A DNA stretch of 64,000 nucleotides, taken from NCBI GenBank assembly GCA_037574385.1, contig GCA_037574385.1_4529.1. One strand, written 5' to 3'. The notes under the pieces are model-generated. The model was not told the DNA's origin. It made no database searches and saw only the letters and a program-made list of their open reading frames with translations. A program made the position numbers and the translations under genes. The DNA comes from a phage. How positions within the stretch are numbered: the stretch's first letter is position 1; each line of letters starts with the position of its first letter. Shown here in pieces: positions 1 through 15,869 of this stretch.

Positions 1-33
1 GCTCATGCAATATATTGAATTTGCACGATCTTG

Positions 34-67
34 TAGGCCGGATAAGGCGTTCACGCCGCATCCGGCA
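34..67. repeat. REP-like palindromic unit (enterobacterial intergenic repeat)
   Basis: GC-rich imperfect palindrome gccggataaggcgttcacgccgcatccggc in host-like intergenic DNA. Confidence 0.5.
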
Positions 68-124
68 TGAATAAAGCGCACTTTGTCGACAAGTTAAATG
101 CCGGGTTTAATCCCGACATTATTT

Positions 125-1006
125 TTATCCAGCCACAAAACTCTCTTCAACACACTGAATAAAAGTGTGCATCGCCGGGCTAACCGCTTTTCCAGCATGG
201 TGTGCGCACATGGCCGTAATGGTCTGCGACTGTTCGCCAAAAGGCAATTCAATTAATTCTCCGCTCTCAAGCTCTTTTTCCACCGCAAAGCGGGGCAAGT
301 AACTGACACCGATATTCGCCGCGACACAACGTTTGATACTTTCAATGCTTAACAGCTCAATGGTGTTTTCCACCGTGATCCGCCGCTGACGCAGCGTGCT
401 CTCAAATATCTGCCGGAAGACACATTGCGGTTCGTTGATAATAAAGCTACAGGCGTTATGTCTTCCCGGCTCAGTAAAATCGACATCTGCAATTTGCGGT
501 GAAGCCACCAGCACCAGCGATTGTTCACCCAACTCTCGTCGGTTCAGGGCATCATCATTCCCTACGCGATAAAAGACGCCGACATCGGCCTCATCATTCA
601 GTAGCGCATCACGGATCACGTAACAGTTCAGCGACTGCAACGATAAACGCACTTTTGGTGCGCGTTGCCGAAAACGCTGCAACACCTGCGGCATTCGGTA
701 AGAGAGCAACGTTTCGCCCGAAACAACGCGTAGTTCCCCGTCCGGATCTGACTCCTTTTTGGCAGCCTCACGAAGCGTATCCATCACTCGGGTAAGTTCA
801 TAAATGTGCGGCAGCAACTTTTTTCCTTCGCGGGTAAGGCACATCCGTCGGCCAATTTTCTCAAATAACTGGACTGAAAACTCCTGCTCAAGCTGCTGAA
901 TATGAAAAGTCACCGTCGATTGTGTACAGCACAATTTTTGCGAAGCTCGCAAAAAGGAACCCTCTTCCACCACGGTTTTAAGCGTAATAAAACGGCGCAG
1001 ATCCAT
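125..1006 (-). CDS. yfiE: LysR-family transcriptional regulator (start taken at MDLRRFITL, internal to the ORF-track ORF)
   Basis: N-terminal HTH (LRRFITLKTVVEEGSFLRASQKLCCTQSTV) plus LysR substrate-binding-like C-terminus; divergent from eamB as in E. coli; ~50% GC. Confidence 0.75.
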   Translation of the reverse strand: MDLRRFITLKTVVEEGSFLRASQKLCCTQSTVTFHIQQLEQEFSVQLFEKIGRRMCLTREGKKLLPHIYELTRVMDTLREAAKKESDPDGELRVVSGETLLSYRMPQVLQRFRQRAPKVRLSLQSLNCYVIRDALLNDEADVGVFYRVGNDDALNRRELGEQSLVLVASPQIADVDFTEPGRHNACSFIINEPQCVFRQIFESTLRQRRITVENTIELLSIESIKRCVAANIGVSYLPRFAVEKELESGELIELPFGEQSQTITAMCAHHAGKAVSPAMHTFIQCVEESFVAG

Positions 1007-1108
1007 AACCCCAAACCTATCGAAAATATCGAATCTAGAATATAAAAACATTCATTTTTTTAAATGTTCCGTGTCGGGTACTGTCTACCAAAACAGAGGA
1101 GATAACAA

Positions 1109-1696
1109 GTGACACCGACCCTTTTAAGTGCTTTTTGGACTTACACCCTGATTACCGCTATGACGCCAGGACCGAACAATATTCTCGCCCTTAGCTCTGC
1201 TACGTCGCATGGATTTCGTCAAAGTACCCGCGTGCTGGCAGGGATGAGTCTGGGATTTTTGATTGTGATGTTACTGTGTGCGGGCATTTCATTTTCACTG
1301 GCAGTGATTGACCCGGCAGCGGTACACCTTTTGAGTTGGGCGGGGGCGGCATATATTGTCTGGCTGGCGTGGAAAATCGCCACCAGCCCAACAAAGGAAG
1401 ACGGACTTCAGGCAAAACCAATCAGCTTTTGGGCCAGCTTTGCTTTGCAGTTTGTGAACGTCAAAATCATTTTGTACGGTGTTACGGCACTGTCGACGTT
1501 TGTTCTGCCGCAAACACAGGCGCTAAGCTGGGTAGTTGGCGTCAGCGTTTTGCTGGCGATGATTGGGACGTTTGGCAATGTGTGCTGGGCGCTGGCGGGG
1601 CATCTGTTTCAGCGATTGTTTCGCCAGTATGGTCGCCAGTTAAATATCGTGCTTGCCCTGTTGCTGGTCTATTGCGCGGTACGCATTTTCTATTAA
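1109..1696 (+). CDS. eamB: LysE/RhtB-family cysteine/O-acetylserine exporter EamB (YfiK), GTG start
   Basis: 195 aa multi-TM protein; sequence recognised as E. coli EamB; RBS GAGGAGA upstream. Confidence 0.85.
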   Translation: MTPTLLSAFWTYTLITAMTPGPNNILALSSATSHGFRQSTRVLAGMSLGFLIVMLLCAGISFSLAVIDPAAVHLLSWAGAAYIVWLAWKIATSPTKEDGLQAKPISFWASFALQFVNVKIILYGVTALSTFVLPQTQALSWVVGVSVLLAMIGTFGNVCWALAGHLFQRLFRQYGRQLNIVLALLLVYCAVRIFY

Positions 1697-1704
1697 CGAA
1701 AAAA

Positions 1705-1730
1705 AGCGGAAGAGGTCGCCCTCTTCCGCT
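1705..1730. terminator. Bidirectional rho-independent terminator between convergent eamB and grcA
   Basis: Perfect hairpin agcggaagagg-tcgc-cctcttccgct flanked by A-run and T-rich sequence. Confidence 0.6.
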
Positions 1731-1751
1731 TAGTAACTTGCTACTTAAGCC

Positions 1752-2114
1752 TTACAGGCTTTCAGTAAAGGTACGAGCGATAACGTCGCGCTGCTGTTCC
1801 GGAGTCAGAGAGTTAAAGCGAACTGCATAACCGGATACACGGATGGTCAGCTGCGGATATTTTTCCGGATGCTTAACTGCATCTTCCAGAGTTTCGCGAC
1901 GCAGAACGTTAACGTTCAGGTGTTGACCACCTTCAATTTTAACTTTAGGTTGATGTTCAATTTCAATTTCACGGGCATTCAAACCGTAGAAAATTTCTGG
2001 GTCTACAATAGCGTCTTCTTTAAAAGCCTTAGAGACAATAATCCGGGCTTGAGTACCGTCTTCAAAATAAATAGTGCCTTTATGTGCACCTTCAAGAATT
2101 TGATATGCTTTCAT
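1752..2114 (-). CDS. grcA: Autonomous glycyl-radical cofactor GrcA/YfiD family; chimeric: C-terminal half host-type, N-terminal half phage-type (T4 Y06I-like)
   Basis: C-terminus [59 protein letters not shown] matches E. coli GrcA with glycyl-radical motif RVSGY; N-terminal 58 aa diverged and encoded by AT-rich DNA. Confidence 0.8.
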
Positions 2115-2120
2115 ATAACC

Positions 2121-2429
2121 TCAATTAGAAAATAAATTTATCCAAGTTTTTTCTTTAATCAAAAATGGGTCGGAATTAAACGCCATTAAACTTTGAGTGA
2201 TTAATCCCTTAAATGGTCCATCAATAAATTCCATTTTGAAATGTGGAATACTAGTCATCAGTCGTGCATTAGGAGCAGTACAAAGAACCTGCTGCCCTGC
2301 GAACGGTCCTTTAGTCAAACGATATCGTTTAGGTTTAAAATGGTAAATCTCGTAATTTTCTACAAGGGCCCTTTTATTGCATACTGGGCTGTTATAACAA
2401 TACTCAAAAACTTCAATAGTGGTCATCAT
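2121..2429 (-). CDS. Hypothetical phage protein (102 aa; start at MMTTIEV, ATGA overlap with upstream stop)
   Basis: ORF in early-gene orientation; start overlaps stop of 2426..2965 (translational coupling). Confidence 0.45.
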   Translation of the reverse strand: MMTTIEVFEYCYNSPVCNKRALVENYEIYHFKPKRYRLTKGPFAGQQVLCTAPNARLMTSIPHFKMEFIDGPFKGLITQSLMAFNSDPFLIKEKTWINLFSN

Positions 2430-2965
2430 TGCATTCCAATCACAAAAAATTGAGGACGAGCAATACCGCCGTTGCAATATTTGCTTTTACAGCAGTGTTG
2501 GACTGTTTTAATATGGACATTGTAAATCTTATCCATATCAGGAGCTTTAATAGGCTCGTCAATTATATACAGAATACGAGAAAGCGTTAATCCACGGAAT
2601 TTAGAACCTTCATTGCCAATAAAACTACGAACAGAATCAGTAAATAAACGGAATCGAATATCGTCGCTAGAATAACGAGAAAATTCTTTTTTAATGTTGC
2701 CAACAGAAATTTTAGCATAAGCTGAAGTATTAGAAAGAACAATAACTGTTCCACCATCATACAGCCAATTAACAGCAAAATTAGTTACTGCAGTTGATTT
2801 ACCTGATTGTCTGCCGCCGTCTAAACGAAGTGTACAGTACTGCTTGAGTACATCTTCAAATGGTGGGACATAACCGTTCTTACAAATTTCTTCTACTCTA
2901 GCATCAGAATGGTGTGTAAAAGCATTCATCAGGGATAGATAAGGTCCAGTTAAAAACGTTCTCAT
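2426..2965 (-). CDS. P-loop NTPase of unknown function
   Basis: Walker A GGRQSGKST and Walker B-like ILYIIDEP. Confidence 0.55.
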   Translation of the reverse strand: MRTFLTGPYLSLMNAFTHHSDARVEEICKNGYVPPFEDVLKQYCTLRLDGGRQSGKSTAVTNFAVNWLYDGGTVIVLSNTSAYAKISVGNIKKEFSRYSSDDIRFRLFTDSVRSFIGNEGSKFRGLTLSRILYIIDEPIKAPDMDKIYNVHIKTVQHCCKSKYCNGGIARPQFFVIGMQ

Positions 2966-3138
2966 TTAGTTTCTCTTAAGGTTGGGGCCATTCCATGGCA
3001 CATGTTAGGTCCTTCGACTCACTATGTAAACCCATTACCGCACTTGGGCTCGACCTTATTACAGGTTGGAAAAGGTACATCACTCAGAGGACTCGACGTT
3101 CATGAGGAGAGGTTGCGTTTCCCTTTATTAGGCAAGAA

Positions 3139-3468
3139 TTATACTCTAGGCTTTTGAGCTTGTTTGGTATTGGATTCCCACGCTGCTTTGGTAATTTTGT
3201 TAGCGGCATAGCCAAAGGCATTAGATAGAACACCTTTAGAGTTGAATACATCCAATCCAATAAGTACACCGGCTGCGTTAAATTTAGGAGCAAAGTACGC
3301 ATTAGTTTTAGAAAGAGCTTTTTTCAATTCAGGGTCTTGAACCAAGCCATCAAAAACGCCTTTACTATTTACTTTATATGTTACTTTGGGATTTTTACCT
3401 TCTTCGATAGCAGCTTTCTGTTCCGCAGATAATGTAACTTCAGTGATAAACTCTTGATATGTTTTCAT
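3139..3468 (-). CDS. Capsid-targeted internal protein candidate (CTS-bearing), 109 aa
   Basis: N-terminus MKTYQEFITE matches the T4 internal-protein capsid-targeting sequence (MKTYQEFIAE). Confidence 0.6.
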   Translation of the reverse strand: MKTYQEFITEVTLSAEQKAAIEEGKNPKVTYKVNSKGVFDGLVQDPELKKALSKTNAYFAPKFNAAGVLIGLDVFNSKGVLSNAFGYAANKITKAAWESNTKQAQKPRV

Positions 3469-3509
3469 ATGTTTCCTTTAAATGTAAATAGGCCTAAGTA
3501 TAGGCCTTA

Positions 3510-4088
3510 TTAATTACCACGGGCTGCATTAGCAACGGCGTAAGCGTACTGAACATTAGCGTCTTTAAACGTACCTTTAGAGGTATCTATTTCTGCCTTA
3601 AAGCCGCCTTTAGCCATAACATCGGCAAATTCTTTACGGAAAGCCATTGCGTCAAGACCTTTCCATGATGATTTATGCTTGGCAAATTCAAGACCAGCGT
3701 AGTTGACAGCTTTAGCCAATTTATTATCAATGACCCATTTACCTGCTTTAGGCACAAACTTCGGGCCTTTTTGTTTAGAGAACAGTTTTAAATTCCAGCG
3801 ACGAAGGTCACTGTCGGCTTTAACAAAAGCTGCGTCTAAGTTACTAGCAACAACATCTTCAATATGAGCAAATTTAAGACCATCAACTTCAATATTTAGA
3901 TCGTTACGCCAGCGAAGTCCTTCCCAAGCGAAGGCTTTAAAGTCGGAAGCCTTTGTAGCTAAGTACCGTTCAATAGGAGCAGTTTTAGGGTCAAAGCCGT
4001 TTCCGCCACGATAATTCCACTCGTCCTTATTAATGCCTTGGACTTTTCCTGCAAAGGCCTCGGCGATAAATTCTTTATATGTTTTCAT
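3510..4088 (-). CDS. Capsid-targeted internal protein candidate, 192 aa (size of T4 IPIII); start at internal MKTYKEFIAEA
   Basis: CTS MKTYKEFIAE preceded by RBS AAGGAAAC; ORF-track ORF extends 14 codons upstream. Confidence 0.6.
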   Translation of the reverse strand: MKTYKEFIAEAFAGKVQGINKDEWNYRGGNGFDPKTAPIERYLATKASDFKAFAWEGLRWRNDLNIEVDGLKFAHIEDVVASNLDAAFVKADSDLRRWNLKLFSKQKGPKFVPKAGKWVIDNKLAKAVNYAGLEFAKHKSSWKGLDAMAFRKEFADVMAKGGFKAEIDTSKGTFKDANVQYAYAVANAARGN

Positions 4089-4153
4089 TTTTGTTTCCTT
4101 GTTTGTTTTGATAGAGTAATTATACCCCATATTAATACTTAAGCGTAAACAAT

Positions 4154-4414
4154 TTAAGCTTTACCGCCAGAAATAATTCCGAAGTTGTTAAAATCGTATC
4201 CAATATCGTCAGCATCTACTTTAGGGCTTGCTACAACATAAGCAATTTCACGACGTTTTGCATAGGTGTTGATTTCTTTACCATCGCCACCTAAGAAAGA
4301 ATACCCATTACGTTTTAATGAGCCAAAGTCTTCGGCATCACCAACGAAAGCTTTAACTTTAAATTTGGGGTCTTTGGCATCTGCTTCAGTGATAAATTCT
4401 TGATACATTTTCAT
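4154..4414 (-). CDS. Capsid-targeted internal protein candidate, 86 aa; start at internal MKMYQEFITEA
   Basis: CTS-like N-terminus MKMYQEFITE with RBS AAGGAAAAA; immediately downstream of denV. Confidence 0.6.
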   Translation of the reverse strand: MKMYQEFITEADAKDPKFKVKAFVGDAEDFGSLKRNGYSFLGGDGKEINTYAKRREIAYVVASPKVDADDIGYDFNNFGIISGGKA

Positions 4415-4421
4415 TTTTTCC

Positions 4422-4835
4422 TTAGTAAATTGATTTACCATAGTATTTGTACCAAGTCGGACGTTGAGCAATTTTTTCATCTAAGCGTGCTTGACTTATC
4501 GCAATGGACGCTTCGGACGGGACATAATTATTACGAAATTCGGCAGGGATGTCGGAAATATCCTGGACTGTCGTGTCCTTTATTTTGAAACCACGTTTCA
4601 AACATTCAGCGATTAGCTCGATTTGACGTAAACGTAAAAATTCGAGTTTGTCATAAAAGAATGTTACGTGACCTGTGCCTAAGATAAATGTTGGAGAGAT
4701 TTTAAAATCTTTTACACGTTTACCGTTTTGGACATGTTTACGGACTGCACCAAATACGCGTGGTAATTCACGATACTCAGCCATAAGATGTTGGTCGGTC
4801 AGTTCAGAAACAAGTGTTAAATTGATACGAGTCAT
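4422..4835 (-). CDS. denV: Endonuclease V (pyrimidine-dimer DNA glycosylase/AP lyase), start at MTRINLTLV
   Basis: Near-identical over full length to T4 DenV as recalled ([12 protein letters not shown]...[10 protein letters not shown]); RBS GGAGGAAATT. Confidence 0.9.
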
Positions 4836-4863
4836 AATTTCCTCCAAGTAGTTGATAGATGTA

Positions 4864-4893
4864 TAGTATCAAAACCCTTGGAGGAAGTAAACA
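4864..4893 (-). promoter_or_regulatory. T4-type early promoter (-35 GTTTAC, N18, extended -10 TGnTACTAT) upstream of denV
   Basis: Minus-strand GTTTAC...TGATACTAT in the 58-bp gap upstream of denV. Confidence 0.5.
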
Positions 4894-5175
4894 CTATTTT
4901 TCTGAAGCGCCTGAAATATATTTTTCAAGACGTTGTTTCATCAGCGAGCCGTTCTTAGCGATTTCTTCCGGTTTATCGCACATACGCAACAAGGCTTCAA
5001 GCTTAACGATATCGCTGGTACGTTCAAATTTGCGAGTATCTATCTTACTAGCAAGTTCAGAAATACGTGCTAATAGACTTTCAGCTTCAACCAAAGCTGC
5101 ACCTAGCTTAGTTGCAAATGTGTCAGTAGCTTCGTTAAGAATAGATTCTGATAAAAATTCACTATATGTTTTCAT
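4894..5175 (-). CDS. Capsid-targeted internal protein candidate, 93 aa; start at [10 protein letters not shown]
   Basis: CTS-like N-terminus; its ATG overlaps the TGA stop of gene e (ATGA coupling); sits at the T4 ipII/ipIII position. Confidence 0.6.
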
Positions 5176-5660
5176 ATATACGCTTTCCAAGTTCCTGTTT
5201 TAAATGTTGAGATTACGCGTTTCGCACGATTAGGTGTCTGACGATACCATTTAGATTGGGCTAGATTTACTGCCGCTTCATCCCAACGTTTCTGTTGAAG
5301 CATACGAAGAGAATTAGTAAAACCAGCAACGCCTGCTACACCCATTTGGAAGACCATATTGACTAATGCACATCGACGAACCGCGTCTAAAGAATCATAC
5401 ACTGGTTTAAGTTTAGCATTACCCAAGATTCCACGAACGGCTTTATCAACATCTTCATTAAATAGCTTTTCAGCCTCATCAAGGGTAATTGTACCGTTGC
5501 ATTTACGACCGATCATTCTATCAAGTTCAGCTTTAGCTACGGCTAAAGACGGGTTCTTTGTTACCAAATGGCCTATGCCAATAGTCCAAAAGCCTTCGGT
5601 GTCTTTGTATAAAGACAGTCTAAGACCTTCGTCATTACGAAGCATTTCAAATATATTCAT
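5172..5660 (-). CDS. e: Phage lysozyme (endolysin, T4 gene e), start at MNIFEMLR
   Basis: Collinear high identity with T4 lysozyme as recalled ([27 protein letters not shown]...[31 protein letters not shown]). Confidence 0.95.
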
Positions 5661-5694
5661 AATACCTCCCACGTTTATAGGAGGTATTTATTAC

Positions 5695-6153
5695 TTATAG
5701 GATGGTAGTGAGCACCTTATATAATGATTTGCCCATCACATATTCCCATTGAGAAGGTTTAATTAAAGCGAATGCATCAAATTCAGGAATCTGTCGTCCG
5801 TCCGGGAATGTATGATAGGAATTACAAACACTGTTTCTGAATTGCTCGTGCTCTACAGGGATGGTATATTGGAATAGATGAATATTCTTATTGTCTGAGT
5901 AATGATGTTCACCTAGGTCTTTCAGGAAGGCAGGGTCATATTGTGTAAACCCAGTTTCTTCTTCGCATTCACGAATAGCGGCTTCAATAGGAGATTCGCC
6001 AGGTTCGACGCGGCCTTTAGGAATATCCCACCGATGAGCTAAAGAACCTTTAGGACGAGAACCAGTTACACGGCCCATGAATAATTCTTTATCTTCGGTA
6101 AGGAAAATAATACCGGCTGATAGTTCTTTCACTTTATTTTTCTTACTCATCAT
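5695..6153 (-). CDS. nudE: Nudix hydrolase (T4 NudE/e.1-like)
   Basis: Nudix box GRVEPGESPIEAAIRECEEETG; directly downstream of e as in T4. Confidence 0.85.
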   Translation of the reverse strand: MMSKKNKVKELSAGIIFLTEDKELFMGRVTGSRPKGSLAHRWDIPKGRVEPGESPIEAAIRECEEETGFTQYDPAFLKDLGEHHYSDNKNIHLFQYTIPVEHEQFRNSVCNSYHTFPDGRQIPEFDAFALIKPSQWEYVMGKSLYKVLTTIL

Positions 6154-6379
6154 CTCGGTCCCATGATTTGGCCATTAATTCGGACATAAATTCTTCAATG
6201 CGTGTTTCTTTAGATGGACTTTCACTATTAGAGACCGCAAGTTTGTAATCTGCAATAGGACGGAACAAATCAAGGTCCATATTAAGATCGTCTTTGATTT
6301 TTTCTTCTGACACATCTTTATCATATGTGTACAGATAACTATCACACGATTCTGATTTAATGTAAATTGCTATACTCAT
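6143..6379 (-). CDS. Hypothetical small acidic protein (start at second ATG, SD AGGAA)
   Basis: ORF with RBS; ATG overlaps upstream stop. Confidence 0.4.
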   Translation of the reverse strand: MSIAIYIKSESCDSYLYTYDKDVSEEKIKDDLNMDLDLFRPIADYKLAVSNSESPSKETRIEEFMSELMAKSWDRDDE

Positions 6380-6867
6380 CTCAAATTCCTGCATTCGGTA
6401 ATAAAACGTTCAACTTCATTATTCTTGGCCTTTATCTTGTCTTTACGTTCCTGTAAACTACTTTTAACAAGATTAATAATGATGCCTATAGTACCTCCAC
6501 CAATAATACCACCAATAATACTTACGATAGTAGATGCTAATAATATAGCGATAATATCTGGTATGGCAAAGGCACTTACTTTAGTACTAAAAAACCATAC
6601 CGACGGTACAAATATAATCCATCCTGTTATCCATTGGCACTTATTGAAAAACTTTTCAAGCTCAGCTTGAGTTGTTCGTATTACTTCATCGATAGGTTGA
6701 TATCCATTAATGTATCTGTTCACGATAATACCTGCTGGTTGGTCGATTTTAAATTCTTGACAAATACGTTTCACTAAGTAGGATGGACATCCTGTCCAAT
6801 CTACTGAATAGTACGAAATACCTTCATTACCGTCGTCTATATTAGACCAATATGTTTTGTTAATCAT
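6376..6867 (-). CDS. Hypothetical membrane protein (163 aa)
   Basis: Long hydrophobic, Gly/Ile-rich segment WITGWIIFVPSVWFF...IVSIIGGIIGGGTIGIIINLV. Confidence 0.5.
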   Translation of the reverse strand: MINKTYWSNIDDGNEGISYYSVDWTGCPSYLVKRICQEFKIDQPAGIIVNRYINGYQPIDEVIRTTQAELEKFFNKCQWITGWIIFVPSVWFFSTKVSAFAIPDIIAILLASTIVSIIGGIIGGGTIGIIINLVKSSLQERKDKIKAKNNEVERFITECRNLR

Positions 6868-7553
6868 TACCAGCCTTCCATAGGGAATTCCAGATAAACT
6901 TGAGCATTGACACGAATTTCATTGGTAATCTTTTTAACTCGGTCTGTATTACGAGATACACGTCCGAACCAACGCCATCCATTACTAATTGCACGAGAAC
7001 CAGTGTGCCATGTTTGCCAATCAAACTGAAGAAGAGTACGGTCTGGAGCTTCCCATTTCTCTAGTTCACCTTTTTCAATTTTTTCGAGGACTTCTTTGTG
7101 CCACTGGCGATAGATAAGTTCGCCATCAGGAATCTGACTGAACTCTGCAGTTCCTGTTGCAAAATGAGTAGGACACACGTCAGCGTTAACAAGGCCAAGA
7201 ATATGTTCAGACAAATAGCGAGGATTGTCATAATCAGGTTGTCCTGCAGTAATAAAATGTTGACCAACCGGAATATCCGGACGTGGTACATCGTCATGGT
7301 GATAACCTGGGATAGCAGGGTACCAACCAGGCATCAGCATGTGGACTCGTGAATCAAATACTACATCCGAGCCTTTCCAATCGTCAGGGAGATTTTGGAT
7401 AAAGCTACGAGTAATTGGACCGCCGTTATCCCAAGCAAAACTCAAATCACAGTTAAAGAACATTTGTTCATTTTTGATTTGGTCATTTTGTACGTTATGA
7501 GCAAAACCACCTACTGCACGAGCTTGACTATTAAACACTTTAGAACTATTCAT
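6867..7553 (-). CDS. Hypothetical protein (228 aa), no recognisable motif
   Basis: Long ORF in hyperplastic region; His/Asp-rich patches (HHDD, PTHFATG). Confidence 0.5.
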   Translation of the reverse strand: MNSSKVFNSQARAVGGFAHNVQNDQIKNEQMFFNCDLSFAWDNGGPITRSFIQNLPDDWKGSDVVFDSRVHMLMPGWYPAIPGYHHDDVPRPDIPVGQHFITAGQPDYDNPRYLSEHILGLVNADVCPTHFATGTAEFSQIPDGELIYRQWHKEVLEKIEKGELEKWEAPDRTLLQFDWQTWHTGSRAISNGWRWFGRVSRNTDRVKKITNEIRVNAQVYLEFPMEGW

Positions 7554-7554
7554 A

Positions 7555-7860
7555 TTATTTTCCTCGGCATTCTTTAATGAAATTTTCTAGATTGGTAGAT
7601 TCAATAGCTTTTTTACGAGCTTCTGCATGTTCTTCTTCAGACAATTTACATTTATAATTAACCCAGACGTTATGGTCAAAACTAGTCGTGGCATATAATA
7701 ACAAAGCCCCGACGAATAATAAAAATGGTGATAAGAATACAAAACCAGGAACACCATCCATATTGTAAGCCTTTTGTAATACTGCAACAGAAAGAGCTGC
7801 ATAAAAAGGCGATGCAAATATTGTAAAAAGACCAATTCGGTTGGTTTCGCCTAATTTCAT
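7555..7860 (-). CDS. Hypothetical small membrane protein (101 aa)
   Basis: Two predicted TM helices; RBS GAGGAGAAT; follows an early promoter. Confidence 0.5.
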   Translation of the reverse strand: MKLGETNRIGLFTIFASPFYAALSVAVLQKAYNMDGVPGFVFLSPFLLFVGALLLYATTSFDHNVWVNYKCKLSEEEHAEARKKAIESTNLENFIKECRGK

Positions 7861-7888
7861 AATATTCTCCTCATGTTTTAATAGGACT

Positions 7889-7918
7889 ACTATAACATAG
7901 TCCTATAATTGTGTAAAC
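7889..7918 (-). promoter_or_regulatory. T4-type early promoter embedded in a 9-bp inverted repeat (PeSL-like cassette)
   Basis: Minus strand GTTTAC-N18-TGTTATAGT; -10 lies within palindrome ATAGGACTA..TAGTCCTAT; near-identical copies at ~9184 and ~15870. Confidence 0.55.
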
Positions 7919-7930
7919 GGTTTTGTGAAA

Positions 7931-8887
7931 TTATTTGAAAGGTTTTACCATATGGAAATTTTGTTTGAAACGTTTGACGTAATCATCATGTCCTAAGCTT
8001 TGGTACATACTTACAACTTTGCTGTAGTTTTCCCAAGCATACTCACGGAACCAACCAGAGGTGATGCTTGTACAGACTTTTTCCAATGCCATCATAAAAC
8101 TGGCTTCAGGGTTAATTTTAAAGTCATTAGGAATCTGAGAACGTTCTAATGCTAGTACACATGATTCTTCGTATACACCGGCCAATTTGACCATTTCTGG
8201 TAATGATTCGAACTTCTCGCGTGAGGTCATGACTTCAGAACCATCTTTCATGTAAAATGTATAAGCCGGACGGTCTGTTAGTGCAATGGCTTCGTGAATA
8301 GTATCATGGTCATACGTATAGATGTCATCTTTAAAGAATGCGCTTTTAGAAGTGTCAAGAACTGGGTGAGCATAGTTCAAGGTTTCTTTCTGGCGTTTCA
8401 GCATAATTTCAGTAAGTTCATCGTTCAGTGTAACACCTTTACCACGAAGATACTGAATATGGTTCATAGTCTTTAAAAAGAATGGATTATTTTTCTTGAA
8501 ACGATGAGACATCTTAATTGCAAGACACATCTCAGGAGTTGCCCAGTAAAACCCGTTCAAACGGTCTTTAGTCAAATTTTTCTTGGCGTATTTTAAAAGG
8601 TCATAAGAAGACGTGAAATCTTCAGGAGTGAGTTCACCGACTAATTCACGGACATTAGTGATTGCCGGAACAATATACGCTTCAAAATGAGTTTCGCGTC
8701 CATTATGGAAGCATTTGAAAACTTGGACATCAGGGTTATCTTGGTGGACATATACACCCATCATTTGATTTTTGAATGTATTCCAAGAACCTTGGTCCGC
8801 AATAAAGTCCCAATCGCTATTTTTGATAGCGCTAGAATCAATAAGGCCATGATAGTGAAGTGCACGAGAACCAATAACTAACATCAT
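7931..8887 (-). CDS. Hypothetical protein (318 aa)
   Basis: Long ORF, no motif recognised. Confidence 0.5.
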   Translation of the reverse strand: MMLVIGSRALHYHGLIDSSAIKNSDWDFIADQGSWNTFKNQMMGVYVHQDNPDVQVFKCFHNGRETHFEAYIVPAITNVRELVGELTPEDFTSSYDLLKYAKKNLTKDRLNGFYWATPEMCLAIKMSHRFKKNNPFFLKTMNHIQYLRGKGVTLNDELTEIMLKRQKETLNYAHPVLDTSKSAFFKDDIYTYDHDTIHEAIALTDRPAYTFYMKDGSEVMTSREKFESLPEMVKLAGVYEESCVLALERSQIPNDFKINPEASFMMALEKVCTSITSGWFREYAWENYSKVVSMYQSLGHDDYVKRFKQNFHMVKPFK

Positions 8888-8915
8888 AATATTTTCCTCT
8901 GATTAATTCATTAAC

Positions 8916-9167
8916 TTAAATTTCACGACATGCGATATCATATTCATCCCAGAGGTCATCATGTGAAGCCTCTACCAATGGAACGATTGTACCGTTTATG
9001 TCTTCATTATAAGGACAAATTGTACAGTGCGCATCTTCGAATCGGATGCCTTTGTGTTCAGATTTTTTATAACGTATATCGAATATCTTTGCAAACTTTT
9101 CACGACTAATAGTTTTAGCAACTACTTCGGTTCCGATACTTTCGTAATAAATCATTGTGGACTCCAT
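8916..9167 (-). CDS. Hypothetical small protein (83 aa)
   Basis: ORF directly downstream of an early promoter. Confidence 0.45.
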   Translation of the reverse strand: MESTMIYYESIGTEVVAKTISREKFAKIFDIRYKKSEHKGIRFEDAHCTICPYNEDINGTIVPLVEASHDDLWDEYDIACREI

Positions 9168-9183
9168 TTAATTTGATAGGACT

Positions 9184-9213
9184 ACTATAACATAGCCCTA
9201 TCTTGTTGTAAAC
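9184..9213 (-). promoter_or_regulatory. T4-type early promoter within palindromic cassette
   Basis: GTTTAC-N18-TATAGT on minus strand; palindrome gataggactactataacatagccctatc. Confidence 0.55.
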
Positions 9214-9217
9214 TGTT

Positions 9218-9415
9218 TTAGCAAGAATAACTAGATGATACCCAGCCTTGAACAGTAATACTATTATTGGATAATGAGATCGCGTCCTGGAGATTCAGAC
9301 CTGCGTTATCTTCAATCCACAATGTAACTTCTTCGCGTTCTTCTGTTGCAATTTGGAACAGGTTTTCCAGAGCAGCTACTGCCGTACGTACAGCACAATC
9401 TAATTCACGAGACAT
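9218..9415 (-). CDS. Small protein, member 1 of a tandem paralog triplet (65 aa)
   Basis: C-terminus ...TVQGWVSSSYSC shared with the next two ORFs. Confidence 0.5.
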   Translation of the reverse strand: MSRELDCAVRTAVAALENLFQIATEEREEVTLWIEDNAGLNLQDAISLSNNSITVQGWVSSSYSC

Positions 9416-9424
9416 ATGATTTCC

Positions 9425-9697
9425 TTAACAAGTGTGAGAAGATGCAACCCAACCACCATCTTCAAGGCTCAGGTTGTAGTCGTATTGGTAAACGTCAGCC
9501 CATTCAGCCTGGCCGTTTTTTGTACAACGTTCAAGATCGGCTTTAAGATGTCCTGGTGAATGATAGGTTCCACCCATGCCATAAGCTGGATACAAGTCGA
9601 ATGTTGTGTTTTGTTTATTAGCAATTTCTTTGGCAGCCTCAATAGCTGCATAGATTTTTGCTACGGCTTCAGCCAGTTCGGTTTGTTCTTTAGACAT
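9425..9697 (-). CDS. Small protein, member 2 of tandem paralog triplet (90 aa)
   Basis: C-terminus ...DGGWVASSHTC; N-terminus MSKEQTELAEA. Confidence 0.5.
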   Translation of the reverse strand: MSKEQTELAEAVAKIYAAIEAAKEIANKQNTTFDLYPAYGMGGTYHSPGHLKADLERCTKNGQAEWADVYQYDYNLSLEDGGWVASSHTC

Positions 9698-9706
9698 AAT
9701 GATTCC

Positions 9707-10012
9707 TTAGCACAACGCAGAAGACGAAACCCAAGCACCTTCAGTAATAACGTAACCATTACCTTCACGCTTAACGTCGCCACCATTATTTTCAATTTCA
9801 TCTTTCATCCACTGGGATACGATTTCACCCTTAGGATAATAAGTACGACCGCTACCATAATCACCTACAGAAAATGATACGGCGTATTGGTCTGCGATCT
9901 TTGTTGCTTCTTCTTCGATACGTTCAGCTTGATTCAGAAGTTTATAAATTGCATCTGAAGCGGATTTGGCATCATTAAACTCTGGTACTTTAATTTCAAT
10001 AATCTTACTCAT
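9707..10012 (-). CDS. Small protein, member 3 of tandem paralog triplet (101 aa)
   Basis: C-terminus ...EGAWVSSSALC; N-terminus MSKIIEIKVPE. Confidence 0.5.
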   Translation of the reverse strand: MSKIIEIKVPEFNDAKSASDAIYKLLNQAERIEEEATKIADQYAVSFSVGDYGSGRTYYPKGEIVSQWMKDEIENNGGDVKREGNGYVITEGAWVSSSALC

Positions 10013-10071
10013 TTTCTACATTCCTTAATAAAGTTTTCGATTGTTTCATTTTCACGTCTAGCTAGGAGTTC

Positions 10072-10101
10072 ATTATAACTAATCATTTGAGAAGCGTAAA
10101 C
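10072..10101 (-). promoter_or_regulatory. T4-type early promoter (GTTTAC-N18-TATAAT) upstream of the paralog triplet
   Basis: Consensus -35 GTTTAC and perfect -10 TATAAT on minus strand in the 10013-10110 gap. Confidence 0.55.
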
Positions 10102-10110
10102 AGCATAAAT

Positions 10111-10503
10111 TCAGTTCAGGCTTTTGCATCTTATTTCCTTAACGAATTCCATAGCTTCTTCATATTCATACTTTTTAACAGCTTCATCATACTGAGCTTG
10201 GGCTTTTGCGCACTGAACTTTCCATTCTCTTAATCGGGCTCTGTGATGACGGCCTTGGTGCCAATATCCTACCCAATTAATAGGCATTAATAAAAACGGT
10301 ACAATAAGTGGTGCGACGAACATTAATGAAAACGCTGCATCAGACGATATAACTTTATTGGAATCTAAAATAGCTCCTATAATCATAAAGATTAAAAATG
10401 CTAAAGCTAAAATAGGACCAAATAGTACTTCATTTGGGATTAATTTACGCTTGTATTCATACGCCCAGGGCTTACTTGGCATGTATAGGGTTGGCTTTGA
10501 CAT
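10111..10503 (-). CDS. Hypothetical membrane protein (start uncertain; ORF-track ORF extends to 10533)
   Basis: Two hydrophobic helices (ILALAFLIFMIIGAIL, FSLMFVAPLIVPFLLMPI). Confidence 0.45.
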   Translation of the reverse strand: MSKPTLYMPSKPWAYEYKRKLIPNEVLFGPILALAFLIFMIIGAILDSNKVISSDAAFSLMFVAPLIVPFLLMPINWVGYWHQGRHHRARLREWKVQCAKAQAQYDEAVKKYEYEEAMEFVKEIRCKSLN

Positions 10504-11095
10504 ATTCTCTACATTCCATAATAAATTGCTCAAGGATTAAATTGTTAGTGAAATTAGGACTAACAACCATGGTTTCATAAAGAGCATCAATAGCACTTAA
10601 AGCATCAACTCTTTTAAGCAAAGGCTTGCCTTCATACATAGTTTCAGAATCGACGATTAACGTAAAGTAATATTTTTTGTTATCGACTAGAACTTCAGTA
10701 TCGATATAAAACATGTTAGACCTTAAGAGCTTATCTCTAAAACCATAATAATCTTCAGAGCGTTCGCTGATATATTCCCATTCGGTGTTTAAACAACAAA
10801 CAGACCACGTAGGAGCAACGAAATCAGTGAATCTAATATCATGGTCTGCAACTAGTTTAGCAATAGCTCCGATATCATGAATCATAATACCTGGGGCTAA
10901 TAAAGATTTTCTGCTATGGCTAGCCGTTTTCTCAGTTGTCTCATAAGAAGACGACCAGTACCATTTACGTCCAGTTGCAACATATCGTAATGAATCAACT
11001 AAAGACGTAGGTGGATTTACCTTATCTCGGAACTCTTCGAACATTGAGTCAATATCATTATTTTGGTTTCGCATGTTAACTCCTTTATTATCCAA
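10472..11095 (-). CDS. Hypothetical protein (207 aa)
   Basis: ORF with RBS AAGGAG; preceded by terminator hairpin. Confidence 0.5.
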   Translation of the reverse strand: MDNKGVNMRNQNNDIDSMFEEFRDKVNPPTSLVDSLRYVATGRKWYWSSSYETTEKTASHSRKSLLAPGIMIHDIGAIAKLVADHDIRFTDFVAPTWSVCCLNTEWEYISERSEDYYGFRDKLLRSNMFYIDTEVLVDNKKYYFTLIVDSETMYEGKPLLKRVDALSAIDALYETMVVSPNFTNNLILEQFIMECREYVKANPIHAK

Positions 11096-11097
11096 AA

Positions 11098-11115
11098 GGA
11101 GGACCGGAGTCCTCC
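11098..11115 (-). terminator. Intrinsic terminator-like hairpin (GGAGGAC-UCCG-GUCCUCC + U-run)
   Basis: Perfect 7-bp stem followed by UUUU on the minus-strand transcript, just after stop of 11124..11732. Confidence 0.5.
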
Positions 11116-11123
11116 GTATTATT

Positions 11124-11732
11124 TTATTTCAAAGAGTTAATATATTCTTGTACATCAGCAGAAGTGGTTTCAACACCGGCTGGAGCGCCATTGAATGTTT
11201 CAACGCGAGTCAGAGTGTCTTCGATATCAACCTTAGTCAGTGCAGCAATTTCAATTACATCATCAGCCGTAGAGATACCAAGAGCATTGGCTGCTCGAGT
11301 TTCGCGGATGTATTCAAGTTTGATTGCCAGGTTCTGACGAGCATCGTCAAGTTCAACCACCTTACGAGCAATTTCAATTCGCATAGCGGCATACCCGTCA
11401 GCTTTTGTATTAAGTTGTTCGGCGGTTCGACGATACAGAAGTCCAAGCTTAGCATGCATGGTAACATCTTGTCCTTCAGCCAGGAGCTTACGAATTTCAC
11501 GTTCCTTAGAAGCGGCTTGCTTGTTCTTTTCATTAACAAGTTCGCGAATACGTTTTTCTTCATTAATAGATTTAATAGAAGCCGTTTTTAGTTCTTTGAT
11601 TTGGGTAATCAACTTATCTGCGGCTGCGTTATACTGTTCTTCGACAGTCAGATTTTTAGCCATAGCAGTACCCAGTTTAGTGCGAATGAATTCAACAAGT
11701 TTCTTCAGTGTGTTCATATTATTACCTTTCAA
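11124..11732 (-). CDS. Coiled-coil protein, possibly PspA/IM30-like (202 aa)
   Basis: Highly charged heptad-rich sequence ([43 protein letters not shown]); fold assignment is a guess. Confidence 0.45.
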
Positions 11733-11787
11733 TTGGTGGTTTATTATCCAACGAGAGCATTATACTCTGCTCTCAAGAGTTTGTAAA

Positions 11788-12015
11788 TTATTTTTTAATC
11801 AAATTGACATAAAACTTGGCGTCTTCTGGGTGCATGCCTTCGCAATATTCTTCAACCATGAACTTCTTAACAGCTTCATAAGGACCACTCAGATTAAGCT
11901 CAGTTGTCCAGAACTTGGAATCTTGGACTGAATCGATACGAACTTCAGGGTGTCGGTTGCGAATAACTTCTTCGGTGTATTCATAATCAACGACATCAAT
12001 ACTAACTTTAGCCAT
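11788..12015 (-). CDS. Hypothetical small protein (75 aa)
   Basis: ORF with RBS GAGGAGAAA preceded by the promoter/5'UTR module also found at ~48620. Confidence 0.45.
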   Translation of the reverse strand: MAKVSIDVVDYEYTEEVIRNRHPEVRIDSVQDSKFWTTELNLSGPYEAVKKFMVEEYCEGMHPEDAKFYVNLIKK

Positions 12016-12044
12016 TTTGTTTCTCCTCTGTAGTTGATAAGTCT

Positions 12045-12074
12045 ATAGTATCACCATCCTTGGTGTTTGTACAT
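12045..12074 (-). promoter_or_regulatory. Early-promoter-like element (TGATACTAT extended -10; divergent -35)
   Basis: About 30 bp identical to the cassette upstream of 48344..48613 (gtagttgataagtctatagtatcac). Confidence 0.4.
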
Positions 12075-12082
12075 CATTATTT

Positions 12083-12388
12083 TTAATTTTTCCAACTTAA
12101 CAACTTGTAGTGTCCTTCATTCGTACGAGGTTTATCCCAAGAAATACTAATATATGATTCACTGTCAATAGAAGTCGCCGGGTTTTTCTCTACCGTAAGA
12201 CCTTCACTTTCCAGCCATTCAATAGTGTTTGCGCATAAATCTGAAGAACACCTCATCGGAAACTGGCAAGATTTTTCACCTTTAGCTGCAGCATTATACA
12301 TCTTTTCTAAAATACGCTTTTGCACGTTTTTAAAAATAGTTTCAGCAGATTCTTCAGATTTTTTATTCAGTTCAGTGTAAAGACTCAT
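12083..12388 (-). CDS. Hypothetical small protein (101 aa; start at MSLYTEL with SD GAGGAG)
   Basis: ORF; ORF-track ORF extends 9 codons upstream. Confidence 0.45.
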   Translation of the reverse strand: MSLYTELNKKSEESAETIFKNVQKRILEKMYNAAAKGEKSCQFPMRCSSDLCANTIEWLESEGLTVEKNPATSIDSESYISISWDKPRTNEGHYKLLSWKN

Positions 12389-12445
12389 AATATTCTCCTC
12401 ATTAATAGGGCTCATAATATCTCAATCATAAGCCCATGTACGCAT

Positions 12446-12721
12446 TTATTTCATATTATCGAAATATTCTTCAGCGATTTCGACATTATCATGGTAAACT
12501 TTAGAAGACAGTTTAACATAACCTTCTGCTGCGAACATATTAATCACAACCTTTACAGTATACCATTGTCCGTCTTCATTACCCATTACTGCGTAAGTTT
12601 CAAACATCGGATGGTCAGGTCCAATAACTTTAATATCATTCACCGTACGTCCGAAATCTTCTGGAATGCATTTCATAAAGAAGTTGAACAGTTCACCGTA
12701 ATTATCCATTTCATTCTCCAA
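12446..12721 (-). CDS. Hypothetical small protein (91 aa)
   Basis: ORF downstream of an early promoter. Confidence 0.45.
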   Translation of the reverse strand: MENEMDNYGELFNFFMKCIPEDFGRTVNDIKVIGPDHPMFETYAVMGNEDGQWYTVKVVINMFAAEGYVKLSSKVYHDNVEIAEEYFDNMK

Positions 12722-12751
12722 GGTTTTTCTGTATCGGTAGTTGATAGTTGT

Positions 12752-12781
12752 ATAGTACCACGGAAGAACAGGGATGTAAAC
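12752..12781 (-). promoter_or_regulatory. T4-type early promoter (GTTTAC-N18-TACTAT)
   Basis: Minus-strand motif; same cassette family as ~4864 and ~48644. Confidence 0.5.
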
Positions 12782-12883
12782 AGTTTTGTGAAAAAAATTT
12801 TTAAAAAGTTTTGGGGAATTCTAGGACAGGGAGAGGAAAGGCCTAGATACCAAAAAGCCCTATCTAAATGATAGGGCTTAAAA

Positions 12884-13447
12884 TTATTTACCTAGTTTAG
12901 TTATTATAGCTTCGGCAGCAGCTTTTAGCTTAGATGCAGTGTTAATACGATTTTTAATTTCGGTATACGCATCGCCAAGAACATCAAGGCTATCAGAATA
13001 AACACTTACACTATTGCGTTCGCTATTTGAAATAGAACCTTTAGTTTTACGATCAAAATCAGTGTACACGTCTTGAAGATCACGGGCTGCCTTCTTTGCA
13101 TCATCCAATGCGTCAAGAGCTTTATTCAAAGCATTGACATATTTTTTAGTGTCAAACATATTCTTAGAAATTTTAACAGGTGCACGTTCAGGAGTAGCTA
13201 AGGCGGATTTAGGAACCTGTGTGCCAGCTGCCAGTTTCTTAGAAATTTTGAAAAACGCTTTATTGAAACTATTTTCTTGACTCATCGTAAAAGAACTAGT
13301 ATCGATGTTATACATTTCAATAGCTTTAGCTTTCCACTTAAGAAAATCGCCACGGTCTTTTGGATCCAAGTTGAAGAATACTTTAGTAAGATCTGCTTCA
13401 GATGGTAATTTTGCTGCTTCGGTTAAAAATTCGGCATAGGTTTTCAT
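12884..13447 (-). CDS. Capsid-targeted internal protein candidate (187 aa) beside the tRNA cluster
   Basis: N-terminus MKTYAEFLTEA (CTS-like); Lys/Ala-rich. Confidence 0.55.
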   Translation of the reverse strand: MKTYAEFLTEAAKLPSEADLTKVFFNLDPKDRGDFLKWKAKAIEMYNIDTSSFTMSQENSFNKAFFKISKKLAAGTQVPKSALATPERAPVKISKNMFDTKKYVNALNKALDALDDAKKAARDLQDVYTDFDRKTKGSISNSERNSVSVYSDSLDVLGDAYTEIKNRINTASKLKAAAEAIITKLGK

Positions 13448-13531
13448 TTAAAATCCTTGAAATAATTTATCGGTTTGTTATTAATTATTTATTACTTTGG
13501 TATTATCAGTAACAGCATTCTCTGAGTGATT

Positions 13532-13564
13532 CAAACTAAAAAGCCCCAACCTTTCGGAAGGGGC
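13532..13564 (-). terminator. Rho-independent terminator closing the tRNA/stable-RNA cluster
   Basis: Minus-strand hairpin GCCCC..CC-GAAA-GG..GGGGC followed by UUUUUAGUUU. Confidence 0.6.
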
Positions 13565-13617
13565 TAAGCCTTGCGGCAACCTTGTCGGGGTTCCACCTGC
13601 TAAGGCAAGTGTTTGTA

Positions 13618-13708
13618 CGAAACGCCGGGATTCGAACCCGGTTATTAAGCAGTTGACGCTACTCAATATTTTTAAAAGGCCATATCTCGACCATATCCGA
13701 ACGTTCCG
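13618..13708 (-). ncRNA. tRNA-like or small stable RNA (canonical T-arm; no clean cloverleaf found)
   Basis: Minus-strand CCGGG-UUCGAAU-CCCGG T-arm and a pairable 7-bp acceptor-like stem 91 nt apart; D and anticodon arms not resolved. Confidence 0.25.
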
Positions 13709-13876
13709 TCAAAAACGCTACTCGGCTTACGGCAAAGATATTTCCTCGAATCGATAATTCTGTGCGCCGTTTCTGCTGTGATGTAAGGGGATATTAACAA
13801 ATCGTAAAGATTTATTAAGACCAGTCCTTACTCAGGGAACATCAGTCCGACGACTTGCCGGTAGCGACCCGGCTTC

Positions 13877-14221
13877 TTATTTTGACATATCATCAATTTG
13901 TTCTCTACGTCTACGCCATAGATTAATTACTTCATCAACACATTCAGCGTTTGATATATGACGGCAATAATATAATGATTCGCGTTTCTGGAACCGATGT
14001 TGCAATGGGATTTCGTTTAAAAGGTCTTTACGGTCAAAGTATTCAAAACTAGTTAACCCGGAACGATTTTTAATGAACTTCCAATGACCGAATTCATTTT
14101 GAACATAGATGTAATCGGCATGTTGATAAAGTGAATTAATCAATCGGTCTGAAATAACTGTATCATGTTCGTTAAAATAAAACGTTAAATCATGAACTAC
14201 TAAATAGACATTACCTTTCAT
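13877..14221 (-). CDS. Hypothetical protein embedded in the tRNA cluster (start at MKGNVYLVV; ORF-track start would overlap tRNA-Arg)
   Basis: ORF between tRNA-Arg and the stable-RNA region; no nuclease motif recognised. Confidence 0.4.
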   Translation of the reverse strand: MKGNVYLVVHDLTFYFNEHDTVISDRLINSLYQHADYIYVQNEFGHWKFIKNRSGLTSFEYFDRKDLLNEIPLQHRFQKRESLYYCRHISNAECVDEVINLWRRRREQIDDMSK

Positions 14222-14239
14222 ATTTTCCTCACTTATAAT

Positions 14240-14316
<77 letters not shown>

Positions 14317-14322
14317 AATATA

Positions 14323-14396
14323 TGACCCAGACCAGATTCGAACTGGTAACCTTTCCCTTATGAGGGGACTGCTGCTAACCGTTGAGCTACAGGGCC
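14323..14396 (-). tRNA. tRNA with anticodon CAU (Ile2-type or Met), CCA not encoded
   Basis: Acceptor GGCCCUG/CUGGGUC (one U-U mismatch), anticodon loop CUCAUAA, T-arm ACCAG-UUCGAAU-CUGGU; lies 6 nt upstream of tRNA-Arg. Confidence 0.55.
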
Positions 14397-14475
14397 TAAA
14401 TAACTTTCTATTATGAAAGGCACTTTAGAGCACCTTTGGTAATAGAGGGTATGAATTAATAATATCACATAATTC

Positions 14476-14991
14476 TTAAAGCAAATCAATCATTTTAACA
14501 GTCGGCAAAACGATTTCTTCTTCAATATAAGCAAATTCAACACATTCGACTACACGCAAGAAATCATAATCATAATATTCAGAAGCATGGCCAAGAATAT
14601 CAATGAGACCTTCTGATACTAAATATCCATTCTCACGGAACAGGTCAAATACACGTGATTCATCTTCTTCAGATTTATTACCGAGGTCGACTTCAATATC
14701 AAAGACCTTTTTAATGAATTCTGGATAAAGCTGGTCTGAGAACAATCCTTCAACCAAGTATTCATAGATTAAAAGCGAGCAATCACTGAATGGTGTATTA
14801 CCACAGTAACGTTCAGCTTTAGTGCTAGAATGACGACTCTTAAATTTCTTCAAAAGATATTTAAACTGTTGGAGCTCATGCTCTTCCACTTCAAACAATG
14901 TTTTGGTTTTATAGTTGTCACCATCATTTTCATAGGTAGTGACATCAATTACATAACCCTTAGGAATTGTACTGCCTAAACAAATATTCAT
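14476..14991 (-). CDS. Hypothetical acidic protein (171 aa)
   Basis: ORF; Glu/Asp-rich. Confidence 0.45.
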   Translation of the reverse strand: MNICLGSTIPKGYVIDVTTYENDGDNYKTKTLFEVEEHELQQFKYLLKKFKSRHSSTKAERYCGNTPFSDCSLLIYEYLVEGLFSDQLYPEFIKKVFDIEVDLGNKSEEDESRVFDLFRENGYLVSEGLIDILGHASEYYDYDFLRVVECVEFAYIEEEIVLPTVKMIDLL

Positions 14992-14995
14992 TTAC

Positions 14996-15286
14996 TCACC
15001 GCACCATATTAATGTAATTATATTCAATACAACGTAATTTCAAAGGATTCTTGAAAATATTGTATTCAAGAGGGCCTTTTTCTGTTTCAATAAAGAAATC
15101 AAAGTTAACTGTGTTAAATTTACCGTCTTCACAGAGTAATTTAACTTGCGAAGATGAACGGTCGATATAAACCTTTTCAACCTCAAAGTTAGTCAGAATA
15201 CCATAGTCATTAACTAGTGCTTTAGCTGCACGTTGATCGCTTTCGTATCCATTCTCAATAGATGACACTTTAGCATAAAGAATCAT
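14996..15286 (-). CDS. Hypothetical protein (96 aa)
   Basis: ORF; ATGA overlap with upstream gene. Confidence 0.45.
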   Translation of the reverse strand: MILYAKVSSIENGYESDQRAAKALVNDYGILTNFEVEKVYIDRSSSQVKLLCEDGKFNTVNFDFFIETEKGPLEYNIFKNPLKLRCIEYNYINMVR

Positions 15287-15645
15287 GAATGTTCCACCAC
15301 TTCAAAGGTATGAGCATCAACAATATGATACCAGTCAAAATTTTCTTCTGCGTTTTTATAAATTTCGCGAAGAGCCTCAACAGTTTTTCCTGTAGCAACA
15401 AGGTCGTCAATACCACCAAGAGGATAACAGTCATAACCAGCAAACAGAAGGAAATTAATAGTTTCTGTAGGTTCTGGATGCAGAACTCCATTATCGTCTA
15501 CCACTTCAAAGAAAGTGTAAGAAGGAGTATAAGTTTTAATCCAGGCCCATGCTTGTGCTGCTGAATCAAATGGCCTGCGTATCAAACGACAATCATGGTC
15601 TTTAGAAGGATTTGCTTCAAAATCCGCATATACGTGATATTTCAT
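15283..15645 (-). CDS. Hypothetical protein (120 aa; start at MKYHVY, SD AAGGTGAG)
   Basis: ORF with RBS. Confidence 0.45.
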   Translation of the reverse strand: MKYHVYADFEANPSKDHDCRLIRRPFDSAAQAWAWIKTYTPSYTFFEVVDDNGVLHPEPTETINFLLFAGYDCYPLGGIDDLVATGKTVEALREIYKNAEENFDWYHIVDAHTFEVVEHS

Positions 15646-15646
15646 T

Positions 15647-15853: not shown

Positions 15854-15869
15854 TTCGTTTTGATAGGAC

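Follow-up and report, generated by a model that had tools for sequence, protein, structure and literature searches.

The whole stretch of DNA analysed, referred to here as the window, was 64,000 nucleotides long and consisted of two parts of different origin. Bases 1..1936 were 100% identical to the E. coli chromosome, covering yfiE, eamB, a terminator and the last 185 nt of grcA, while bases 1937..64000 were phage and represented approximately 62 kb of an RB69-like Mosigvirus genome. The GC content fell from 0.49 to about 0.38 at the switch. The ORF listing of the window contained a single ORF at 1752..2114 on the minus strand, which extends over the border between the two parts. The features of the locus are as in Table 1.

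Table 1. Features at the host/phage border of the window and native phage genes used for comparison (positions in the window unless a comparison locus, L001 to L004, is given).
Feature	Position	Strand	Evidence and remarks
E. coli yfiE (LysR-family regulator)	125..1006	minus	E. coli identity; extent from E. coli annotation (L002 2625-3506)
E. coli eamB (cysteine/O-acetylserine exporter)	1109..1696	plus	ORF listing and E. coli identity
E. coli grcA/eamB intergenic hairpin terminator	1704..1731	minus	Terminator scan; E. coli identity
vs.6/Y06I-type autonomous glycyl radical cofactor (GrcA homologue)	1752..2114	minus	Intact 120-aa ORF, ATG/TAA
3' block of the gene, codon 60 to stop, 185 nt	1752..1936	minus	GC 0.49; 100% identical to E. 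coli grcA
Interval of the switch from phage-type to E. coli-type	1762..1936		Without fixed diagnostic differences (variable-site table)
Phage-type 5' part of the gene, gene nt 1-178, codons 1-59	1937..2114	minus	GC 0.35; 98-99% nt identity to Mosigvirus genes
Ribosome-binding site GAGG	2119..2122	minus	5 nt before ATG; overlaps the vs.7 stop codon
vs.7 homologue (102 aa from ATG, T4 Y06J family)	2121..2429	minus	63% to T4 vs.7, E=1e-47; PHROG 2049
vs.8 homologue (179 aa)	2426..2965	minus	89% to T4 vs.8, E=2e-123; PHROG 1488
Native mosaic vs.6 genes	L001:2509-2871, L003:2509-2871, L004:6558-6920		3' 183-185 nt is an E. coli grcA-like block

The product of the ORF was assigned to the GrcA/YfiD-like family, in agreement with an earlier reading made from the sequence alone (the sequence-only reading). 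Gly_radical (PF01228) was its sole Pfam domain, located at residues 59-101 and scoring 67.3 bits where the gathering threshold is 22.2 (E=2e-18). A PDB sequence search matched residues 21-120 to 6OWR, the solved structure of E. coli GrcA (E=7e-43), and aligned residues 57-120 to positions 696-759 of PflB (E=2.6e-26). The profile of PHROG 1209, which is 121 positions long, matched the ORF over its full length (residues 1-120 against positions 1-121, E=2e-62). The fingerprint RVSGY was present, with Gly95 aligned with Gly102 of E. coli GrcA. Protein identity was 92.5% to T4 vs.6, which is the protein Y06I (NP_049730.1, annotated GrcA), and 98.3% to the proteins of phages phiC120 and ESh15. Outside the radical domain, the N-terminal halves of the ORF and of E. 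coli GrcA were 35% identical over 40 aa (pairwise E=3e-6). The likeness to GrcA is much stronger than chance would give. Overall, the ORF has the size, the lone Gly_radical domain, the RVSGY glycine and the N-terminal homology that make up the structural definition of GrcA/Y06I.

The NCBIfam equivalog TIGR04365 (spare_glycyl) was the top-scoring family for the ORF, but its score of 159.3 bits was below the cut-off of 170; T4 vs.6 scored 151.1 bits and E. coli GrcA 234. The shortfall reflects the diverged N-terminal 20 residues of the ORF and does not put the shared function in dispute, because the T4 protein, which has been tested, scores lower still. We attribute the score below the cut-off to the training of the model on bacterial proteins and do not take it as an argument against membership. 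An exact-protein look-up returned no record of a protein identical to the composite GrcA or to the 179-aa vs.8 homologue, and an Rfam scan showed no non-coding RNA near the locus.

On the phage side, the synteny vs.8 - vs.7 - vs.6 was the same as in T4, phiC120 and ESh15, and the GAGG site of the phage gene was also the same in phiC120 and ESh15 according to the alignment. Beyond vs.7 and vs.8, genes for internal proteins, denV, e and nudE followed in the T-even order. The window from about position 1745 onwards matched Mosigvirus T-even phages (phiC120, ESh15 and RB69 relatives) at approximately 97%, and a 20-kb stretch deeper in the window was collinear with and 98% identical to phiC120 and RB69. 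In native phages the order is vs.8 - vs.7 - vs.6 - vs.5 - vs.4; its upstream half was kept in the window, but vs.5 and vs.4 were absent downstream because of the host/phage junction. The two flanking genes at 2121..2965 had been called uncharacterised in the sequence-only reading, and this holds, as the vs.7 and vs.8 homologues fall in PHROGs of unknown function. PF26834 (Phage_T4_Y06J) was found on vs.7-type genes in an identical context.

The vs.8 homologue contained a Walker-A or P-loop-like motif (GGRQSGKST) and weakly resembled the N-terminal ATPase of the large terminase, with a sub-threshold Pfam score of 16.1 bits (threshold 22) and a match to PHROG 2 at E=1e-6. On sequence grounds, it is possibly an uncharacterised P-loop NTPase. 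About 170 nt (2966..3138) separating the vs.8 homologue from a gene of internal-protein type were without an ORF of more than 36 aa and without an Rfam match; the counterpart in ESh15 is annotated with a 34-aa ORF. Two phage tRNA genes, tRNA-Arg(tct) and tRNA-Met(cat), were located at 14240..14396 on the minus strand, 6 nt apart. In native Mosigviruses vs.4 (e.g. L097:6931-7197), which lies two genes 3' of vs.6, matched Pfam PF24729 (Acb2_Tad1_hairpin), a family named for anti-defence sponge proteins; the window has E. coli DNA in place of vs.4.

The two parts of the gene differed in their relationship to known sequences. The sequence-only reading had described the N-terminal part as phage-type and as a diverged GrcA homologue, and both descriptions were borne out, by the identity of 1937-2114 to Mosigvirus genes and by the distance of the protein from E. 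coli GrcA given above. Gene nt 1-178 were only 2-3 nt off phiC120 and a related contig, and showed no nucleotide-level resemblance to the 5' part of E. coli grcA when aligned. The block at 1752..1936 encodes the glycyl radical domain including RVSGY with Gly95. At gene nt 354, 357 and 360 the window had the E. coli bases, and the Mosigvirus copies examined differed; the last three codons (GAA AGC CTG) and the sequence downstream were E. coli-type, while Mosigvirus copies have GAG/GAA AGT CTA followed by vs.5. The hairpin terminator now stands 3' of the composite gene, where native phages have vs.5. The switch narrows to 1897-1936 on the assumption that gene nt 219 of the parent phage was the common T/G. 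Judged by these sequence comparisons, the gene in the window is an in-frame host/phage composite.

Such a composite was possible because native vs.6 already carries a near-identical E. coli grcA block. GC content in vs.6 genes rose from 0.35 over the 5' part to a host-like 0.47-0.49 over the block, compared with 0.38 for the phage part of the window. Native phage copies differed from E. coli at 4-9 positions of the 3' block, and T4, phiC120 and ESh15 at 4-5 positions over the 3' 183 nt (97-98% identity). By comparison, the E. coli grcA block differed from that of Salmonella at 30 positions (83.6%) and from that of Citrobacter at 14. The block peptide was invariant among E. coli, Salmonella and Citrobacter, so that the differences from host to host are synonymous. 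The block was present, at 95-99% identity, in 633 phage records.

These comparisons point to a recent gene conversion from host to phage as the source of the 3' block in T4- and RB69-type vs.6, with Escherichia as the donor. A recent Escherichia origin is indicated because the phage block is closer to E. coli (97-98%) than Salmonella grcA is, and the direction from host to phage is indicated because the E. coli block diverges from other enterobacteria approximately as much as its 5' part does. The T4-type and RB69-type copies have several differences from E. coli in common, at gene nt 219 and 357. Because these are shared, the pattern is more easily explained by one conversion that then spread among phages than by many independent events. 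The block would be a clear example of conversion from host to phage that can be dated and that affects only the half of the protein which has to fit host PflA and PflB. A literature search, in which the coverage of papers was incomplete, gave no description of the nucleotide-level identity between the vs.6 3' block and the host.

Of the phage sequence, 54 kb were compared with E. coli by megablast, and the block was the only similarity at that level: positions 2150-55999 matched none of 5,426 complete E. coli genomes. Conversely, the eamB/yfiE flank was found in no phage record, the matches there being trivial ones to REP elements. Since the block is the only near-identical stretch that host and phage share, an assembler or a recombinase alike would join the two exactly here. 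We consider it reasonably probable, from the sequence evidence, that the join is an assembler mis-join (or a library chimera) made through this block, phage and host DNA having been present in one sample.

Public records showed that the block acts as an assembly breakpoint. ES21 (MN508617.1) and ES26 (MN508618.1), both labelled 'complete genome' and unverified, had both of their ends inside the block with the middle missing, so that vs.6 is disrupted in the two records. GEP001 (PV173775.1) begins inside the block, 39 nt from the end of the gene, and the Logan contigs L103 (6355-6603) and L104 (6359-6589) stop 71 and 53 nt into it. Against a mis-join, assemblers more often break at such repeats, as in ES21, ES26, L103 and L104. 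Nothing specific on assembly chimeras at the vs.6/grcA site was found in the literature search.

A real junction would have arisen if, in the course of infection, phage recombination of the UvsX/UvsY type had made a crossover inside the 185-nt block between the phage genome and a piece of E. coli chromosome undergoing degradation. Sequencing would then have captured the resulting hybrid host-phage molecule, which could be an intermediate of recombination or a packaged transducing-like particle. Homologous recombination is very active in T-even phages, the reading frame and the protein were preserved, and the E. coli-like block (97-98%) in 633 phage records shows that exchange with host grcA by recombination has taken place in nature and become fixed. 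The switch also lies exactly within the only near-identical stretch of host and phage, although mis-assembly predicts the same. However, no second copy of the junction and no reciprocal was found in any collection searched. The junction itself (E. coli 3' flank, 173 nt and a phage-specific anchor), a degenerate junction pattern with T4-type anchors and the reciprocal junction each gave 0 matches in the viral, genome and metagenome contig collections, scans of low power as the phage-specific anchor was present in only 2 IMG/VR contigs. Exact matches to the neighbouring 109-aa protein were in normal phage contexts only. The absence of eamB/yfiE from phage records likewise speaks against a real junction, as do the conserved genes that would be lost when host DNA replaced vs.5, vs.4, vs.3, regB and beyond, the need for a second crossover when the span tested offered no homology for one, and the demonstrated faltering of assemblers at the block. 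Overall, a real recombinant was considered possible but rather unlikely. Still more doubtful was a wider proposal that T4- and RB69-type phages recurrently homogenise the radical-domain half of vs.6 with host grcA, which would make the locus a recombination hotspot and the window a genuine in vivo hybrid. Should the junction nevertheless exist as a molecule, host-phage exchange would have been caught directly in progress. The encoded C-terminal 60 aa are unchanged whether the junction is real or an artefact.

Taken as a whole, the best explanation, held with high confidence, identified the ORF as vs.6/Y06I from an RB69-like Mosigvirus, present in the window as a host/phage composite and probably through a mis-join. 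The sequence-only reading had called the gene phage-borne; this stands for vs.6 of Mosigvirus, but the copy in the window straddles the host/phage junction and may be an assembly artefact. T4- and RB69-type genomes and the E. coli chromosome share a near-perfect repeat of approximately 185 nt inside vs.6, which breaks or mis-joins assemblies and accounts both for the composite gene in the window and for the broken public assemblies. No fewer than three phage records in GenBank and two contigs in Logan were affected by the repeat, and therefore joins between E. coli and T-even sequence at grcA should be distrusted until the reads have been checked.

The biochemistry of the family is known from T4. 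According to a 2021 JBC paper (PMC8683613, citing Wagner et al. 2001, BBRC 285:456), the radical of T4 Y06I is installed by PFL-AE, and the protein, like E. coli YfiD, forms a complex with oxygen-cleaved PFL and restores activity to the O2-cleaved enzyme. Y06I and YfiD are given in that paper as the only validated spare-part proteins. The sequence-only reading had proposed the same spare-part biochemistry and had named loss of the glycine motif from the native full-length gene as the finding that would speak against it. RVSGY was kept in all of the native full-length genes inspected (phiC120, ESh15, T4 and five further Mosigvirus contigs), and the C-terminal 60 aa of these genes were identical to E. 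coli GrcA except for R73H in T4. With the T4 orthologue as precedent (PMC8683613), the proposal was judged to be right for the present protein by analogy.

If the present protein acts as E. coli GrcA and the T4 orthologue do, its RVSGY loop would lose a hydrogen at Gly95 to PflA, the radical-SAM activase of the host. Carrying the radical, the vs.6 protein, a 14-kDa 'spare part', would then dock on PFL in which the C-terminal radical domain has been cut by oxygen at Gly734, and catalysis would be restored. Host gene expression is shut off by T-even infection, and the phage copy may keep PFL running in the micro-oxic gut during this shut-off. Such upkeep of PFL would sustain acetyl-CoA and ATP during infection, and would also supply formate, the reductant of class III ribonucleotide reductases including the phage anaerobic NrdD, to the phage's own anaerobic ribonucleotide reductase. 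Maintenance of host anaerobic metabolism during infection, as the sequence-only reading had suggested, may thus be the role of the gene.

The vs.6 protein could alternatively be a spare part for the phage NrdD, which is also an oxygen-cleaved glycyl radical enzyme, and not for host PflB. T-even phages encode NrdD/NrdG, and a role in nucleotide metabolism was suggested from the shared Pfam domain (Nolan et al. 2006, PMC1524935). However, the C-terminal 64 aa of the ORF are those that aligned to PflB in the PDB search, the last 61 aa are the same as in E. coli GrcA, and the 3' block was copied from host grcA and not from nrdD. There was no NrdD chain among the 33 PDB matches at E<=1e-3, and T4 NrdD structures are presumably present in the PDB. 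The T4 protein also works with PFL-AE and cleaved PFL, as stated in PMC8683613. A spare part for NrdD was therefore rejected as highly improbable, the similarity being to PflB and GrcA only.

The proposal of the sequence-only reading that the gene is a novel phage auxiliary metabolic gene, with a function still to be established, was scarcely credible. The label 'unknown function' of phrog_1209 in PHROGs, the name hypothetical protein in many phage records and the absence, in the literature search, of any paper on phage grcA as an auxiliary metabolic gene could be taken in its favour. However, vs.6 was listed in 2006 as a conserved Gly_radical ORF of T4-like phages (PMC1524935), and RefSeq phage proteins are already named 'autonomous glycyl radical cofactor GrcA'. 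Biochemical validation of the orthologue from T4, with 92.5% identity, was reported in 2001, and the radical-transfer and PFL-rescue experiment that had been suggested as a check was already done with it (PMC8683613, citing Wagner et al. 2001). That phages carry a GrcA homologue, how it works biochemically and how widely it occurs are already known. As a gene finding, the ORF carries little weight, since a phage GrcA homologue is on record.

A GrcA homologue was present in 1,589 phage records, many of which name the gene GrcA and many others of which list a hypothetical protein. In at least one close relative, OR352941.1 (L100:6048-6555), a vs.7-like and a vs.5-like gene were directly adjacent, with neither grcA/vs.6 nor a remnant of it between them; this record shares an identical 109-aa neighbouring protein and the gene order. 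vs.6 is thus accessory and dispensable in the OR352941.1 lineage. The host comparison set consisted of 81 grcA genes (E. coli and 80 host loci). Comparison of Klebsiella, Enterobacter, Citrobacter and Salmonella phages with the 80 host grcA loci showed no other near-identical pair of phage and host. The Klebsiella phages pKp20 and Matisse (L085, L086) carried the radical-domain variant LLDAVEH, which was likewise present in a Phytobacter host locus (L009), where E. coli has LEDAVKH. The nucleotide identity of the LLDAVEH Klebsiella phages to the best host sampled was only 84-90%, and any matching of Klebsiella phages to their host is old, or the true donor lies outside the sample.

Compared with known systems, homologues in Jiaodavirus, Slopekvirus, Karamvirus, Krischvirus, Pseudotevenvirus (phage Miller), T5-like Tequintavirus/Epseptimavirus and Aeromonas Biquartavirus had the same domain and RVSGY in proteins of 120-138 aa. 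The 3' halves of the genes in these groups, including the Aeromonas phages, were 76-90% identical at the nucleotide level to the best host sampled and had no recent E. coli-type block. In PflB (e.g. 1H16), the part of the C-terminal glycyl radical domain aligned with the ORF (696-759) is the portion lost on oxygen cleavage; the ORF is a stand-alone protein of 14 kDa without the 10-stranded barrel or the catalytic cysteines of PflB. E. coli GrcA (YfiD; WP_000627807.1; NMR structure 6OWR) shared with the window an identical C-terminal 61 aa (EGGQHLN...TESL) and the identical 185 nt encoding them, and its presumed partners, PflA and cleaved PflB, are shared as well. The N-terminal part of the ORF was 7 aa shorter than that of E. 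coli GrcA and, unlike the E. coli gene, the ORF sits in a phage transcription unit with a phage ribosome-binding site. T4 vs.6/Y06I (NP_049730.1) has the same 120 aa in length, the same upstream vs.7 and vs.8, and the same mosaic of an AT-rich phage-type 5' half and an E. coli-like 3' block. Nine substitutions separated it from the ORF, eight of them in the N-terminal 59 aa, and the C-terminal 60 residues differed at R73H only. Finally, T4 continues 3' of vs.6 with vs.5, vs.4 and onward, whereas the window continues with the last three codons of E. coli grcA, its terminator and the E. coli chromosome.
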